Shown here: positions 3,976 to 27,726 of the stretch, piece by piece | Numbering within the stretch: position 1 is the first letter of the stretch | How the letters are laid out: every line of letters begins with the position of its first letter | NCBI GenBank assembly: GCA_014905635.1 | Contig: JABVCE010000009.1 | Location: 62,001-126,000 of the forward strand | Length of the DNA stretch: 64,000 nt | Source: Scenedesmus sp. PABB004 | Lineage: Eukaryota | Direction: 5' to 3' | The notes under the pieces: model-generated | What the model was told of the DNA's origin: nothing | Databases searched by the model: none | Seen by the model: only the letters and a program-made list of their open reading frames with translations | Program-made: the position numbers and the translations under genes

Positions 3976-5369
3976 ATGGACGCGCTGCTCGAGCATGACG
4001 CCGACATCCTGCGCCCGCCGTGGGGCCCCTACGGCCGCGACCTGACGCTGGGCGTGGTGGCGTGGGCGAGCAAGCTGGTGCTGCAGGTGCTCAACACCAC
4101 CAGCGTGCAGGGCCACGACACCTACACGCAGCTGGTAACCAATCGGACGCCCGGCCGGGGCCTGCTGACCGTCAGCAACCACACCAGGTGCGCCGGCGCA
4201 CGGCAGCGGCGGCCGCCGGCCGGCGCCCGCGGCCGGCGGCGCGCGGGGTGCGCGGGGTGCGCGCCGGCGCACACGCGACCGTCGGCGGCGGCGGCGCCGA
4301 GCAGTGCCCGCCCGGTCGCGCCCCACGCAGCACGTTTGACGACCCCGGGCTGCCGTGCGCGATGCTGCCGTGGACGTTCTTCTGGACCGAGCACGCGCAC
4401 GGCCTCAACCGCTGGACCATGTGCGCCAGCGACGTCTGCTTCACCAACGCGGTGTTCAGGTCAGGCGCACCCTGCACGCGCGGCGACTGCGTCGCCGGCC
4501 GCCCCCGACTTGCGCCGCCCGCTGACGCCTCGCTGCCCCCGCCCCTGGGGCGCAGGCAGTTCTTCGCCAACGGCAAGACGCTGCCGATCGAGCGCGGCGC
4601 GGGCGTGGGCCAGGCGCCGATGGGCGTCGCGGCGTCGGTGCTCGCGCGCGGCGACTGGCTGCACATATTCCCGGAGGGCCGCGTCACGCCCGACGGCAGC
4701 GTCGGCCCGTTCCGGCAGGGAATCGGGCGCCTCGTCTGCGACGCGCGCGCCGCCGCCGGTGGACGGTGCGCGCGCGCGCCCTCACGCCGCTCCGCGCACT
4801 CACTCTGTCCCCCCTCTCTCCCTCCTCCCTCCCCCACACCTCACGCACCGTTTACACGCCGCGCCCGCCCCGCTGCGGCGCAGGGACCCAATCATCCTGC
4901 CCTACTTCCACAGCGGCATGGCGCGCGTGATGCCGTTCAAGTCGGCGGTGCCGCGCGCGGGGCACGCCGTGGAGGTCGCGGTCGGGGCGCCTCTGGACAT
5001 CGGGCACATCACCTGCCGCTGCAACGCGCCGGGTGCGGGGCGCGCCGCGCGCGGCGCAGCGGCGCCGGCGGCGCTCCGCCGACCCGTGCGGCCGGCCGGG
5101 CCCGCGCCGCCGCAGGCGAGGACCAGCAGCAGGTGTGGCGGGACATTGCCGCCGCGCTGCGCGACGCCGTCGTCGCGCTGGAGGGCCGCGTGCCGCCCAA
5201 CCCCGACCAGGTGGCGGCGCGGCCGGACGTCGCCGAGTGGGAGCGGCGCTACCAGGAGCGCCAGGCCGCGCGGCGCGAGGAGCAGCAGCGCGCGGGCGGC
5301 GCGCAGCAGCAGCGGCCGCCGCGCTGGCGCTGGTGGCGCGGCGGCGCGGACGACCAGGGCGCGCGTTGA
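3976..5369 (+). CDS. TAZ: Tafazzin-like phospholipid acyltransferase (about 5 exons)
   Basis: LLTVSNHTSTFDDP (HxxxxD motif across a splice), RWTMCASDVCF, FFANGKTLPIERGAGVGQ, WLHIFPEGRV, FRQGIGRL, IILPYFHSGM. Confidence 0.9.
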
Positions 5370-21800: not shown

Positions 21801-24151
21801 GCGGCCCCGGCGGCGCGCGGCGGGGCGGGGCGCGGGCCGGCGCCAGCCGCCGCGGCGCGGCGCGCCCGCGAGCTCACAGGATCATCGCCTCGTCGGTGCC
21901 CTCGTGCGCGGCCATGCGGGGCATGTCGTGGTTGTCCATGAAGTTGCCGAGGATCGGCACCGCGCCAGGCGACGTCGCCGACAGCAGGACGTCCACCGCC
22001 GCCTGCGCGCGCGCGCGCGCGCGCGCGAGCGTGAGCGCCCGCCAGCGCCGCGCTGCCGGGCCTCGATCCACATGCTCGCTGGGCCCCGCCAGCTGTGCTG
22101 CCCCGCGCGCCGCGAGCGCAGGGTGCTGCGGGTGCACTGCGCACCTTGAGCAGCGTCGTGTTGGCGGGGTTATACGGGTAGCGGCCGTCGGGGCCGAGGA
22201 AGACGCGGCTGCTCGCGCCGTAGAGGCCGTACGAGAGCTGGCTGTGCAGCTGGTCGGTCGCGACCATCTCGGCGAGGCGGCGCGTGCCGTTCTGCCAGTC
22301 CATGTCCAGCACCTCGCCGATGGTCAGGATCTTGGACCGCGCCTTGATATCCTGCAGGAAGGTCTGTGTGCACGCGGCGCGGTGCGGCGCGGCGCGGTCC
22401 GGGCGGGGCGGCGGGGTCGCCGCCGGCGCCGAGGGACGGCGCGCGCGCGCGGGCCGGGCCGGGCCGGGCCTGGCGCGGTGCAGGCACGAGGGCCGGCGCG
22501 CGCTCGCGGGCGCGTGCGCGCACCTTGGGCATGTGCTTTGCCGCGTCGACGCGGAACGCATCCACGTGGTACTCGTCGCGCACCCACTTCATCCACGCGT
22601 GCAGCGTCTCCGCGACGTGCGGGACGCTCTGGTTGAGGTCGGGCAGGCCCTTGATGCGGCAGACCTCGAGCGCGCGCGGGCTCTCGTCGGGGTTGTTGCA
22701 CGTCCCCGGCTCGCAGCCTGGCGGCGCCGGGCGCGGGCGTGAGCGCGGGCCCGGTCGCCCGGCGGCGCCCGGCGGCGCCCGGCGGCGCCCGCGGCGGTGC
22801 GCGGCAGACCCTGCACCGCAGCCCTGAGCCCTGAGCCCCGAGCCCGGGGCGGGCGCGGTTGCACGCACCGTCGCACGAGTGGTAATACTCCGGCTTGTCA
22901 AAGGTCATCTCCCCGATGTCCTCCTCAGCAAAGTAGCCAGAGTGGTTGGGCACGATGTCCAGCATCACCCACATGCCTGGGCGCGCCGCGTGGGCGGCGC
23001 AGAGGGGCTCAGGCACGCGGTGCAGCCGGCGCAGCGCGGCCCCGGCGGCCTGGCTCCCCTGCCGCCTGCTGCCGCCGCCGCTGGTGCTGCTGCTGCCGCT
23101 GGTGCTGCTGCTGCCGCTGGTGCTGCTGCTGCCGCTGGTGCTGCTGCCATCGCTGCCGCCGCCGCTGCTACTGCTGCCGCCGCTGCTGCTGGCCTGGCGC
23201 TGCTGCGTGACAGCCTCGCGGCCCGCCCGCCCGCGCGCCGGCCGCCGGCGCGCCGGCTCACCCCTGTCGTGGATGGCCTTGGTCAGGTCAGCAAAGTCCT
23301 GGGGCGTGCCCAGCATGGAGTTGAGGTCCCACAGGTTCTGTGCACGTGGGCGGGGTGGGCCGCGTCAGCGCGCACGCGCCCCATGTGTGTGTGGGGCCGG
23401 CCGGCCCGCGCGGCCCGCGCGCGCGCAGGCCAGCCCCGCTTGCGGCTGGCTGGCTCCGGATTGGCCGCCGCGGCCCGCGACGCCGTGCACGCTGGCCAGA
23501 GCAGCTGCCTCTCGTCAGCTGAGCTGCTCAGCGCCTCACCTTGGGCCAGTAGCCTGCGACGGGGCCGCGGGGCGGCGGCGGCGCGCGGCGCGCGTCAGGG
23601 GCCGGCGCGGGCGCGGCGAGGCGCGACACGCCGCCAGGGCCGGGCGTGAGCTCTGAGGGATCTGGGCAGCGCCCCCGCGCAGCCCCGCCGCCCCTCATGG
23701 GCGCGGGCAACCGCCCTGCCAGGGCTGCCGACCACACCACACCCACCGTGCCAGCCGTCCTGGAGCTCGCGCACGGGCCCGCCCGTCTGCGACGTGACGG
23801 GGCTGATCCAGACGGCATCGAAGCCCATGCCCTGCAACCGCGGCGGGGTGTGAGGCGGGCGCGGCATCCCGGCGCGGGTCGGTTGCGGTCGATCCGCACC
23901 TGAATGTAGTCCAGGCGCTGGCGCAGGCCGACGTGCGTGCCGCCGCAGGCATTATCGAGGTCCTTGCACGGCCGCGGGACGGCGGGGCAGTCGGCCAGGC
24001 CGAAGCGGTCCGTCAAGATGTGCAGCACCGAGCGGTTCGCCCAGGCCTCGGGCGGCGGCGGCTGCCATTGCGACTTGGCGGCGGTAGCGATGCCGAGCGC
24101 CACCGCCAGCAGCGCGGCGAGCAGCAGCGCTGGCTGGGCGGGGCGCCCCAT
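15820..24151 (-). CDS. Alpha-glucan synthase-like (Ags1/Mok1 architecture): signal peptide, GH13 alpha-amylase domain, TM helix, GT5/GT-B synthase domain, multi-pass TM domain; about 1703 aa
   Basis: 21 exons: 24151-23900, 23831-23747, 23553-23540, 23337-23262, 22976-22869, 22717-22524, 22363-22145, 22002-21878, 21711-21559, 21349-21010, 20866-20534, 20406-19961, 19797-19705, 19544-19427, 19256-18992, 18788-18571, 18417-18218, 18105-17996, 17848-17083, 16976-16802, 16641-15820. They sum to 5112 nt in one open frame. GH13 motifs: ILTDRF, LDYIQGMGFDAVWISP, WHGYW, LDIVPNH, LPDL, FRVDAAKH, IGEV, DNHD, GIPIVYYGTE. GT motifs: MEY...GGLG, HDYHGAL, HNAHYNG, FLGRLTHQKG, PSRYEPCGLVDIEF, GGLGKMPG. Confidence 0.82.
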
Positions 24152-24881: not shown

Positions 24882-26568
24882 TCACAGGTCGGCCATGGGG
24901 TCGTCCCGGACGTCGCGCGCGGCGTAGCTCTCCACGCGCTTCTTCTTGCCGCCGCCGGCGCCGGGGCGGTTGGCCGTCGGCAGCGCCTTGAGCCCCGCGG
25001 GCGTCTTGAGCGCGCGCTCCCACGTCGCCGCGTGCTTCTGGTACAGGTAGAGCGCCGCGCGCGCGTCGTCCACCGAGCTGTGCTCGCCCTCCTGTATCGT
25101 CAGCCCCAGCTCCTGTCCGCGCGCGCGCGCGTGAGCGCGTGAGCGTGGGCGCGCGCGCGCGTGCTGCGCGTGCTGCGCCGACGGCCGGCGCGCGCCGCGG
25201 CGCGGCGCACCTGCAGCGCGAGGTGGCGCAGCGCGCGCGGGCGGCGCTTGCCGCCCCTGCTGAACATGAGGGGCGGGTACTTTGCTGTGTCGCGCGTGTC
25301 CTTGCGCGGATGGCTCAGCATCAGCACGCGCAGGTCCTTGGACACGCCGTGCCCCACGAGCGTGCGGCCCGACAGCAGCGCCGCGACGTCGGCCTGCACC
25401 GCCGCGAGCGCCGGCGCGCCGGCGAGGCTCGACGGCGTGATGCCGCTGACCCACGTCCTGCGGGGCGGGGCCGGGTGCGGCGGGGTCGGGCGCGCGCTCG
25501 GCGGGGCGTCTGGCCCAGCTGGGCAGCCCTGAGCCTGGGCGGGCTGGTGGGCCTCCGGGCCCAGGGAGCAGCGCCCGCGCCGCGCCGCGCCGCGCCGCGC
25601 CGCGCGCCTGTAGTCAGTGACCGACTCCACCTGCGCCACGTGGCTGTCATAGAGAACGTTGCCCGCCGAGTTGACCTGGCGCACGGGGGCAGCGGCGACG
25701 GCAGCGGCGGCGGCGCGGGCGGTGAGCCCTGGCAGCAGTCCCGGCTGTGTGCGCCGCGCGCGCGCCGCCCGCGTCGCCGCGCCGGCCGGCGCAGGCCCTC
25801 CCTGCCCCCGGTCGCCCCCGGGGCGCTCGGCGCGCGCCGCTCACGATGCTGACGCGCGCGAGCGAGTCGCGCTCGCCGCCGGGGCCGACGCCGACCATCT
25901 CGCAGTCGATCGCCACGATCGGCGTGGCGTCCTTGGTGTGGCCGATGCTGCCGATCGCCTTCTTGGGCGGCGCCGCGCCCGCGGCGCCGTCCGGCGGCGG
26001 GCGCTTGCGGCGCGGCTTGGGGTTGGCCGCCTCGGCCGCCGCCAGCTGCTGCCTCAGCGCCTGCCAGTTGCTGCTCACGGCCGCCGGTTGCTTGGCGTGC
26101 CAGGGCTTGGCCGCCGCCACCGCGGCCGCGGCCGTCGTGGCCGCCGCGGCGACCGCAGCCGCCGCAGGCGCGTCCGCCGCCGCACGCTTGGCTGCCCCGG
26201 CGGCGGCGCCTGCCGTCGCGTTTTTGCCACCAGCCGCGCCCTCGGCCGCCTGCTTGCGCTTGGCCCGGGCCTTCTTGCGCTTGTTGGCAAACGCGGCCTG
26301 GCTCGGCTTGGGCTGCTGCTCGGCCGCCGGCTGCGGCTGCGGCCGGGCGGGCGGCTGCCGCGGCCCGGCCGGCGGCTTCCCCGCCAGGCCAGGCGCCGCC
26401 TGCTTGGTCCTCTTGCCGGCCGGCTGCCCCTCGTCCGGGCCGCTTGCGTGCTTGCGCTTGCCGGGCGCCGAGCCGCCCTGCGGCTGCCGCTGCTGCGGCT
26501 GCTGCTGCTGCGGCTGGCCGCCGGCTGGCTTGTGCTTGTGCTTGTGCTTGCCGCCGCCCGCCGGCTGC

Positions 26569-26604
<36 letters not shown>

Positions 26605-26681
26605 CGACTGCCGTTCTTGGGGACGGGCGCCGGCAGGCCGTGCACCGGCACGATGGGCCGGGCGTGGACCTTTTTCCGCAT
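24882..26681 (-). CDS. REX4: RNA exonuclease 4 (DEDDh family, 4 exons)
   Basis: IVAIDCEMVGVG, LARVSI|VN, VTDYR|TWVSGI, LVGHGVSKDL, RDTAKY, IQEGEHSSVDDARAALYLY. Basic low-complexity N-terminus containing SSNW. Confidence 0.93.
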
Positions 26682-26718
26682 TGCTGCTGCTGCTCCTGCT
26701 GCTCCTGCTCCTGCTCCG

Positions 26719-27284
26719 CTAGTGCTGCTGCTTCTGGGACGCTTCCACCGCCGCGAGCTTGTCTGCGGCACGCACGCGGCGAGCAGGCAGGCAGGTAGGC
26801 CGCGCTGCAGTCGCAGCCGCCGCCGCAGCGCCGCCGGAGCGCAGGTCCGCGGTGCGTGGGCGCAGGCCACGCACCGGCCACGGCCTTGGTGGCGGCTGGC
26901 TTGTAGCTCAGAAAGAAGATGCTGCCGCGCTTGAGGTACACGGCCTACGGGCGCGGGCGGGGCGGTGGGCAGCAGCGAGCAGCGGCGGCGGCGGCTGCGC
27001 GCCCGCCCGCGCCCGCGCCGCCGATGCAGCGGCCGCTCCGGAGCCCTCACCCGGCCCTGCTTGAGGCTGTTGAGCTCCGCCTGCGCGACGCGCAGCGTCT
27101 GGGCCTGCGCGGCGCAGCGACGGCGCCGGCGGCCGGCGGTGGGGCTGCGGCAGCCGCGCGGCGGCCAGCCCGTGGCGCGGGCGGCACGGCGTGCCGCGCG
27201 TCCATCCAGCCTTCGCACCTGCAGCTCTGCCCGCCGCTGCGTCGCGCCGGCTGGCTCGGGGCGGTGCTGCTCACGCGCGCTCAT
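26719..27284 (-). CDS. Small beta-prefoldin-like protein resembling ASDURF (77 aa, 4 exons)
   Basis: Exons 27284-27219, 27104-27051, 26944-26875 and 26762-26719 (all GT-AG, 234 nt) give MSAREQHRPEPAGATQRRAELQAQTLRVAQAELNSLKQGRAVYLKRGSIFFLSYKPAATKAVADKLAAVEASQKQQH*. The ELxxLK..R.VY...x.IFFL core resembles human ASDURF as recalled. Confidence 0.72.
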
Positions 27285-27726
27285 CGCTCATGGCGCGGCA
27301 ACGGGCGCAGCAGCGGAGGCAGCGTGCGCGTGCTGTGACACGGGCGGCTAGCGATTTTCGACGCCGGGGCGCAGGGAGCAGCCGGCGTCGCCAGGCCAGC
27401 TGAAGCGCGCCGCTGCGCCGCTCCGCCAGACGGCGGCGTTGCGTCGGCCGGGGGTGGGTGCCGCTGCGGCCGCACCGCGATCCCGTCACCCCACACTCTT
27501 AGGGGGCTCACACAGCGCGATGGCGGACCGTCTCGGCGGCGATTGGCGGCGCGCGACACGGAGCTGGCCCAGCGCGTGCGGGCGCGGCCGGCTCACTCCT
27601 TGATCGCGCGCGCGGGCGTCGGCCGGCTCACTCCTTTCATCGCGCCTTGACCCCAAAGCTCAAGTCCCGCCATCCATGCCCCCCCCCCCCCCCCCCCCCG
27701 TATCATCGCCGCCGCCGCCGCCGCCG

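Follow-up and report, generated by a model that had tools for sequence, protein, structure and literature searches.

A small prefoldin-like gene next to REX4 in green algae: a conserved two-gene unit probably read as a bicistronic mRNA by leaky scanning

Introduction

Green algae have hundreds of bicistronic nuclear mRNAs; however, few of them, to our knowledge, show conservation across classes, and both partners have seldom been identified. Here we describe a candidate for such an mRNA in a 64,000-nucleotide (nt) stretch of DNA from Scenedesmus sp. PABB004 (assembly GCA_014905635.1, contig JABVCE010000009.1, positions 62,001 to 126,000 of the forward strand), called the window throughout. The minus strand of the window carries a small open reading frame (ORF1), predicted to encode a beta-type prefoldin-like microprotein, and, directly downstream, a larger one (ORF2), predicted to encode the RNA exonuclease REX4. 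Comparison with metagenome loci shows this to be a representative of a two-gene unit that green algae have conserved, and the best reading of it is a bicistronic mRNA, likewise conserved and probably translated by leaky scanning.

Results

Organization of the locus

ORF1 has four exons, 234 coding nt and 77 amino acids, with three introns of 114, 106 and 112 nt that all have GT-AG borders, and REX4 is likewise split in four exons, with 460 amino acids and a sole usable ATG at 26681 (Table 1). The two frames differ across the spacer. An initial annotation of this stretch had described a small four-exon ORF stopping at 26719, followed on the same strand by the REX4 ATG at 26681, with a gap of 37 nt made of GAGCAG repeats in between, and this arrangement was confirmed from the sequence. 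The left edge given there to the small ORF, 27291, was wrong, as the ATG at this position belongs to an out-of-frame mini-ORF, and the true start is at 27284, where the shared N-terminus Met-Ser-Ala (MSA) is encoded. A mini-ORF of six codons, with its TGA overlapping the start ATG, also occurs in two of the metagenome loci described below (L038/L040; in L038 at 4848-4868, plus strand), which may be due to chance. As for the GC donor of the second REX4 intron, it was accepted because no nearby GT donor preserves the conserved VTDYRTWVSG motif.

Two absences had initially been used as cues for a bicistronic transcript, that of any ATG between the two starts and that of TGTAA in the gap. Both are true, the former when the spliced RNA is read from 27284 to 26681 in all frames, but neither is informative. 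With a G+C content of ~78% throughout the window and of ~70% in the spliced stretch of ORF1 and spacer, dinucleotide shuffles of this stretch lead one to expect 0.34 ATG, and a fraction of 0.66 of the shuffles do not exceed the observed count. TGTAA occurs six times in the 64-kb window, counting both strands, and nowhere between 24500 and 27800; because it is so scarce across the whole window, its absence from the spacer says little. In the window alone, the missing ATG and the missing TGTAA are no more than chance.

Table 1. Features of the two-gene locus, in window coordinates
Feature	Position	Strand	Length	Details
Mini-ORF	27271..27291	-	6 codons	Out-of-frame; ATG 27291, TGA 27273-27271; overlaps the true ORF1 start
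ORF1 exon 1	27219..27284	-	66 nt	ATG 27284; N-terminus MSAREQ...; donor GTGCGA
ORF1 exon 2	27051..27104	-	54 nt	AQTLRVAQAELNSLKQGR
ORF1 exon 3	26875..26944	-	70 nt	AVYLKRGSIFFLSYKPAATKAVA + 1 nt, then phase-1 intron as in relatives
ORF1 exon 4	26719..26762	-	44 nt	DKLAAVEASQKQQH; TAG stop 26721-26719
Inter-ORF spacer	26682..26718	-	37 nt	GAGCAG/CAG repeats; no ATG or TGTAA
REX4 exon 1	25845..26681	-	837 nt	ATG 26681; N-terminus MRKKVHARPIVPVHG...
REX4 exon 2	25608..25675	-	68 nt	Followed by GC-AG intron
REX4 intron 2	25458..25607	-		GC-AG; donor GCGCGC
REX4 exon 3	25211..25457	-	247 nt	77% identity to Tetradesmus obliquus P0001
REX4 exon 4	24882..25112	-	231 nt	EGEHSSVDDARA motif; TGA stop 24884-24882

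Identity of the downstream gene

ORF2 is predicted to be the DEDDh RNA exonuclease REX4. A search with its third exon returned chlorophyte proteins with the Pfam RNase_T domain, the best being from T. obliquus, with Monoraphidium minutum at 69% identity, and the spliced protein shares 82% identity with the T. obliquus protein P0001 over 199 amino acids and 72% with P0002, both of which have PF00929. Residues 1-460 align end to end with residues 1-435 of P0012, named RNA exonuclease 4 by its source, and the motifs DCEMVG, GHxxxxDL and HSSVDDA are all present. No single REX4 exon of the window matched Pfam; the intron-free relatives in L001 and L009 score 50.7 and 46.6 bits on PF00929, for which the cut-off is 24. 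Exon 1 encodes the Q/K/A-rich N-terminal half, an SSNWQAL motif and the beginning of the exonuclease domain at DCEMVGVG. Compared with REX4/REXO4 proteins carrying RNase_T (PF00929), the window protein shares the domain-bearing relatives, the full-length alignment and the exonuclease motifs, and differs in its long N-terminal half (~200 amino acids, rich in Q, K, A and P), which is also seen in P0007 and P0012. Among named species, the window REX4 is closest to Tetradesmus.

The N-terminus encoded at 26681, of the pattern MxxKxxPIVP, is shared with P0012, P0007 and L035, and the ATG at this position can therefore be taken as the conserved protein start. Green-algal REX4 N-termini are, more generally, of two motif types, the second of which, M[AV]RGNKFKP or MPHVKGNKFKP, is that of trebouxiophyte-like and intron-poor lineages. 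The former version opens REX4 in L001, L004, L011, L022 and L033, the latter is found in annotated REX4 proteins of Chlorella, Micractinium and Auxenochlorella, and other annotated N-termini are alike (MARGNKFKP in P0017 of Parachlorella and MVKGNKFKT in P0028 of Trebouxia; P0033, P0039, P0048 and P0062 were also compared for this type).

Conservation of the pair

Sixty-one metagenome loci gathered by REX4 similarity were searched by tblastn with the small protein of the window, and then with a profile. In L012, L038/L040, L035 and L033/L034, the tblastn search located the small gene on the upstream side of REX4 and on its strand, and weaker motif matches appeared in further loci. The profile placed it immediately ahead of REX4, in the same orientation, in 21 of the 61 loci, or 12 lineages (L001-L004, L006-L012, L022, L023, L026, L032-L035, L038, L040 and L050), and no profile match of at least 8 bits was seen elsewhere or on the opposite strand in the 61 loci. 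Conserved linkage in other chlorophytes had been named beforehand as a check on the proposal, and this is what the search returned, together with shared intron positions.

Small-gene models were built by hand in 11 lineages, which together with the window make 12; all coordinates were checked, the junctions are GT-AG and the frames close. The MSA N-terminus recurs in five of the nine other models with a defined start, including those of L006, L009, L033 and L038. An exon ending in ...VAxAELxxLKxGR is shared and measures exactly 54 nt wherever the intron upstream of it exists (six of the 12 models), and it is accompanied by a shared exon of 70 or 76 nt that opens with AVY or AVF, a phase-1 intron and a short last exon. 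Near-duplicate loci retain the same structure and the same spacer values. ORF1 measures 63-101 amino acids in the models with a defined start, and 57-58 amino acids in the two models that lack a first exon.

Lineages were labelled after the best named REX4 relative. On this basis L032 is Coccomyxa-like (three REX4 segments match the protein of C. subellipsoidea at 100%, 94.6% and 83.9% identity), L033/L034 are Myrmecia/Coccomyxa-like, L035 is Parachlorella-like, and L050 is Volvox/Pleodorina-like, that is, Volvocales-like, while several further positive loci belong to intron-poor lineages of green type. Of the 40 loci that gave no match, 14 have a fungal or animal best named relative (a two-domain aphid protein was set aside); L005 starts inside REX4, and the remaining loci, apart from L039, which is discussed below, are short, start within REX4 or close to it, or align over 30-70 residues only. 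In the lineage of L011, positions 1-90 are CCCTAA telomere-type repeats and the small gene starts ~100 nt further on, so that the pair is here the first gene unit beside the chromosome end.

Spacers, ATG depletion and start contexts

The distance between the ORF1 stop and the REX4 ATG is 37 nt in the window and 16, 16, 48, 14, 35, 10, -17, 94, 84, 81 and 317 nt in the other models, meaning that it lies between -17 and 94 nt in 11 of the 12 lineages modelled. The negative value comes from L033/L034, where the REX4 ATG is 17 nt upstream of the ORF1 stop and the two ORFs overlap. Spacer sequences are not conserved, with 27-59% identity in related pairs; none of the 12 contains TGTAA, and their length leaves a remainder of 1 on division by three in six models, of 0 in three and of 2 in three, so that the relative frame of the two ORFs varies.

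Past the ORF1 start, ORF1 and spacer of all 12 models contain no ATG in 3,612 nt, against 14.7 expected from dinucleotide shuffles. By comparison, 38 ATG occur in the introns of the same genes (3,248 nt) and 19 in matching lengths of the 5' coding sequence of REX4. The contexts of the two start codons differ as well: a purine at -3 is found for ORF1 in two of 10 models and for ORF2 in 10 of 12, and a G at +4 in none of 10 and in eight of 12, respectively.

Identity of the upstream gene

The family of ORF1 is predicted to be a beta-type prefoldin. The window copy has 21.9 bits and E 1.7e-4 on Prefoldin_2 (PF01920), below the cut-off of 27.6 bits. When 1.84 billion representative proteins were searched with the 41-residue, one-exon core of L033, two proteins were found at E<=0.001, P0010 and P0011. 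The latter, a hypothetical protein of 89 amino acids from Elliptochloris bilobata, scores 32.5 bits on Prefoldin_2, above the cut-off; the profile made from the 12 small-protein models gives it 63 bits, and all 30 of its atlas matches are Prefoldin_2. A leave-one-out profile made from the 11 models outside the window gives the spliced window protein 70.4 bits, and when all 917 six-frame segments of the window were scanned with it, exon 2 (27143-27051, 22.9 bits) and exon 3 (26944-26873, 9.0 bits) ranked top, the next-best segment reaching 4.4 bits. In related pairs, moreover, ORF1 exons are 74-91% identical as opposed to 53-66% for introns, and many codon differences in the core are synonymous. 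We also considered that ORF1 might be a chance ORF, a possibility ruled out by the specific placement of the profile, by the higher conservation of exons over introns and by the leave-one-out profile.

Searches against known structures gave less. P0011 had marginal matches only among all PDB chains (archaeal prefoldin beta at E 0.083, human PFDN1 at E 0.37), and none at E<=10 to the PDB chains of PFDN2, 4 and 6, a pattern that fits a non-canonical prefoldin-like subunit and does not separate ASDURF from PDRG1. The 41-residue core found nothing among PDB sequences, and with the small-protein profile the top match was a designed repeat protein, prefoldin beta came at E 0.11, and no ASDURF chain appeared. 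An AlphaFold2 model of P0011, based on an alignment of four rows and with a predicted local distance difference test score (pLDDT) of 74.9, has three helices and lacks the beta-hairpin that joins two helices in the fold of the prefoldin beta class, and a Foldseek search of the PDB with it returned nothing below E 0.001, its lone row, at E 3.9, being meaningless.

The initial annotation had called the small ORF ASDURF-like, a label that is partly supported. P0011 speaks for the beta-type prefoldin family; in Pfam, however, ASNSD1-SEP (PF21975) was matched neither by the window protein at E<=1 nor by P0011 or six exon pieces at E<=10, although HMMER filters may discard weak matches to this family, and single ORF1 exon pieces had no match in Pfam at all. 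The sole signal specific to ASDURF came from two language-model clusters with ASNSD1-SEP, at 0.78 and 0.76, which are below threshold and serve as leads only. The microprotein has what we take to be the size of human ASDURF, and its hairpin motif presumably resembles that of the human protein; partly on such similarity, orthology to ASDURF is plausible, with a chance that we would put at even or slightly better.

The prefoldin-like microprotein is nearly always missed by annotation; one annotated orthologue and one mis-predicted read-through were found. A homologue search with P0011 yielded, among nine candidates, only P0011 itself. The read-through is P0010, a public prediction of 193 amino acids, which, compared with L034 8060-8600, has its first residue within the core exon of the small gene, from where its GC-rich open frame continues across the intron and the spacer region. 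P0010 is a mis-prediction that masks both the microprotein and the layout in two ORFs. We also sought the REX4 of Elliptochloris in order to compare locus tags for adjacency, and it was absent among the 120 matches listed.

Discussion

The bicistronic arrangement proposed by the initial annotation is strongly supported by the comparison with other algae, namely by conserved collinearity, spacers that are tiny or negative, the absence of ATG upstream of ORF2 in 12 lineages, asymmetric Kozak contexts and the lack of fused models. From the sequences we infer the remainder, which is a single transcript spanning both ORFs, the translation of each of them and scanning as the mechanism. In our opinion, the pair is probably expressed from one bicistronic mRNA that is conserved in green algae and translated by leaky scanning. 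Both ORFs would be present on one capped mRNA, whose scanning ribosomes would initiate at the first AUG, found in a poor context in most lineages, and produce the small prefoldin-like protein. A fraction of the ribosomes would pass the first AUG, meet no other in ORF1 or in the spacer, and initiate at the REX4 AUG; it is because of this lack of other AUGs that REX4 could be served by the scanning ribosomes left over.

Several of our own results weigh against this explanation. In the Volvocales-like L050 the spacer is 317 nt long and the REX4 start uncertain, and L012 has a spacer of either 13 or 141 nt, according to whether a poly-G run hides a frameshift. In L050 and in L032 no convincing candidate for the first exon could be placed, and ORF1 was counted from exon 2. 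The window itself is not a typical case, as both of its start codons have a G at -3 and neither has a G at +4, its ATG-free state is that expected by composition, and the out-of-frame ATG at 27291 sits 7 nt upstream of the ORF1 start and would matter if the 5' untranslated region extends there. L039, of ambiguous lineage, has 3.2 kb of sequence upstream of REX4 and no profile match, and because REX4 5' ends were modelled in positive loci only, green counter-examples among the 40 others are possible. The lineages are related, hence 12 models do not amount to 12 independent trials. Lastly, searches by name and domain did not find the pair among the bicistrons published for C. reinhardtii, C. zofingiensis and A. 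protothecoides. The supplements of PMC7896298 have no entry for prefoldin, REX4/REXO4, ASDURF, ASNSD1, RNA exonuclease or a domain of REX4 type (DEDDh, ISG20, PF00929, KOG2249), and the exonucleases that appear in them are of other families, namely the EXD1, EXD2/WRN and SNM1 types; the supplements of the 2025 PNAS paper (PMC11892635) likewise have no entry for the pair. This absence could mean that the pair is not bicistronic in those species, or that it is unannotated there. Full-text literature searches returned no paper on a prefoldin-like/REX4 pair. With regard to L012, we also observed (440-600) that an ATG 13 nt past the stop of the small ORF opens a frame of 49 codons, which overlaps the REX4 frame over long poly-G runs and points to a frameshift in the assembly or to a short intron.

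An alternative that we regard as unlikely is that of two tightly packed transcription units, in which REX4 would be transcribed from a site of its own, within the small gene or shortly downstream of it, and the small-gene mRNA would end inside REX4, so that adjacency would reflect a shared promoter region or compaction. A REX4 start site within the small gene may make the locus partly monocistronic, and Gallaher et al. (PMC7896298) do describe many loci as "incompletely polycistronic", where monocistronic transcripts occur beside polycistronic ones; the spacer of L050, moreover, could house a promoter. In eight of the 12 models, however, spacers of -17 to 48 nt are too small to accommodate a poly(A) site plus a promoter, and at 27-59% identity the spacer sequence is unconserved and therefore offers no conserved promoter-like element. 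An mRNA of its own, furthermore, would not need REX4 to be preceded by an ATG-free ORF1, and yet no ATG is seen where 14.7 would be expected and where introns have 38. A single bicistronic mRNA could also have its REX4 translated by termination and reinitiation, or from an internal entry site. Short spacers are compatible with reinitiation, but in L033/L034 the REX4 ATG precedes the ORF1 stop by 17 nt, and an ORF1 of 63-101 codons is long for reinitiation, a point discussed for algal bicistrons in PMC11291117. Neither process would select against ATGs within ORF1, and the spacers of 10-94 nt are unconserved, all of which makes this alternative highly improbable. As to a fusion protein made from both ORFs through alternative splicing, frameshifting or stop-codon read-through, a spacer that is a multiple of three in L006, L032 and L038 and a common frame for both ORFs in L012 would allow it, but it is barely conceivable and was rejected, given that the relative frame varies among models, that every lineage retains a stop, followed by an ATG that opens the conserved N-terminus of REX4, and that the small domain is found in none of 124 REX4-like proteins (P0001-P0009 and P0012-P0126), P0010 and P0011 alone matching the profile.

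Leaky scanning on one mRNA also agrees with what is described for this group of algae. In two algae, 87 and 173 loci, many of them conserved, are exclusively polycistronic according to Gallaher et al. 2021 (PMC7896298), and the loci that are explained by leaky scanning include REX1S-REX1B, the TOM22 locus and the OST4 locus, as given in sections of PMC7896298 and of PMC11892635 (preprint PMC11291117). According to portions of the latter preprint, such bicistrons are marked by a short 5' leader, a weak ORF1 context, avoidance of ATG upstream of ORF2 and occasional overlap, and the mechanism is backed by reporter mutagenesis. Like the REX1S-REX1B, TOM22 and OST4 types, the locus described here has a small ORF1 and a larger ORF2 on the same strand, at distances mostly below 100 nt and with some overlaps; an ATG-free stretch upstream of ORF2 and conserved collinearity across chlorophytes are shared with the known cases as well, as is, in most lineages, a weak ORF1 context. 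Those cases have the support of transcripts and reporters, the prefoldin-like/REX4 pair that of sequence comparison. In terms of its organization, the locus would be a new and deeply conserved addition to the known class of green-algal bicistronic loci, and the complete lack of internal ATGs makes it a well-suited natural system in which to test leaky scanning. Besides the alga of the window, trebouxiophyte-like and Volvocales-like contigs have retained the pair, as have several green lineages poor in introns.

The comparison with ASDURF deserves some attention. Sections of PMC10893143 and PMC8567396 describe ASDURF as a beta-type prefoldin-like subunit encoded by an upstream ORF. The human and the algal cases both have a beta-type prefoldin-like microprotein of less than ~100 amino acids as the upstream cistron and a main ORF of unrelated function; the downstream partner in algae is, however, REX4 rather than ASNSD1, and orthology is a sub-threshold lead only. 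That the partner gene differs, as initially proposed, holds true in that REX4 is not ASNSD1, but the pairing is not accidental, being conserved. Arabidopsis AT1G49245 is listed as a plant ASDURF orthologue in a portion of PMC10893143, and by description, on which our comparison is based, it too is a small prefoldin-like protein of beta type from the green lineage; as it has a gene identifier of its own, it would be a stand-alone gene, unlike the paired ORF1. If ASDURF orthology were true, the same microprotein would be the upstream cistron in two kingdoms with different partners. One could then speculate, and we consider it rather improbable, that the smallest prefoldin-like subunit, of ASDURF type, has been kept as an upstream cistron in animals (with ASNSD1) and green algae (with REX4), that such a microprotein may be best expressed when riding on a host mRNA, and that the coupling in algae would fix the ratio of a PAQosome-type chaperone subunit to a nucleolar pre-rRNA exonuclease, which would tie ribosome biogenesis to chaperone supply at the level of translation.

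Surroundings of the locus

A Pfam scan of 12 neighbouring stop-to-stop ORFs of the window had as its sole signal a weak match to an alpha-amylase catalytic domain at 22327-23364 on the minus strand, with E 0.0075 and 16 bits, below the cut-off. On the other side, a stretch of 440 nt separates ORF1 from the stop of the upstream ORF (~27727) and contains a run of ~24 G at 27670-27695 on the minus strand.

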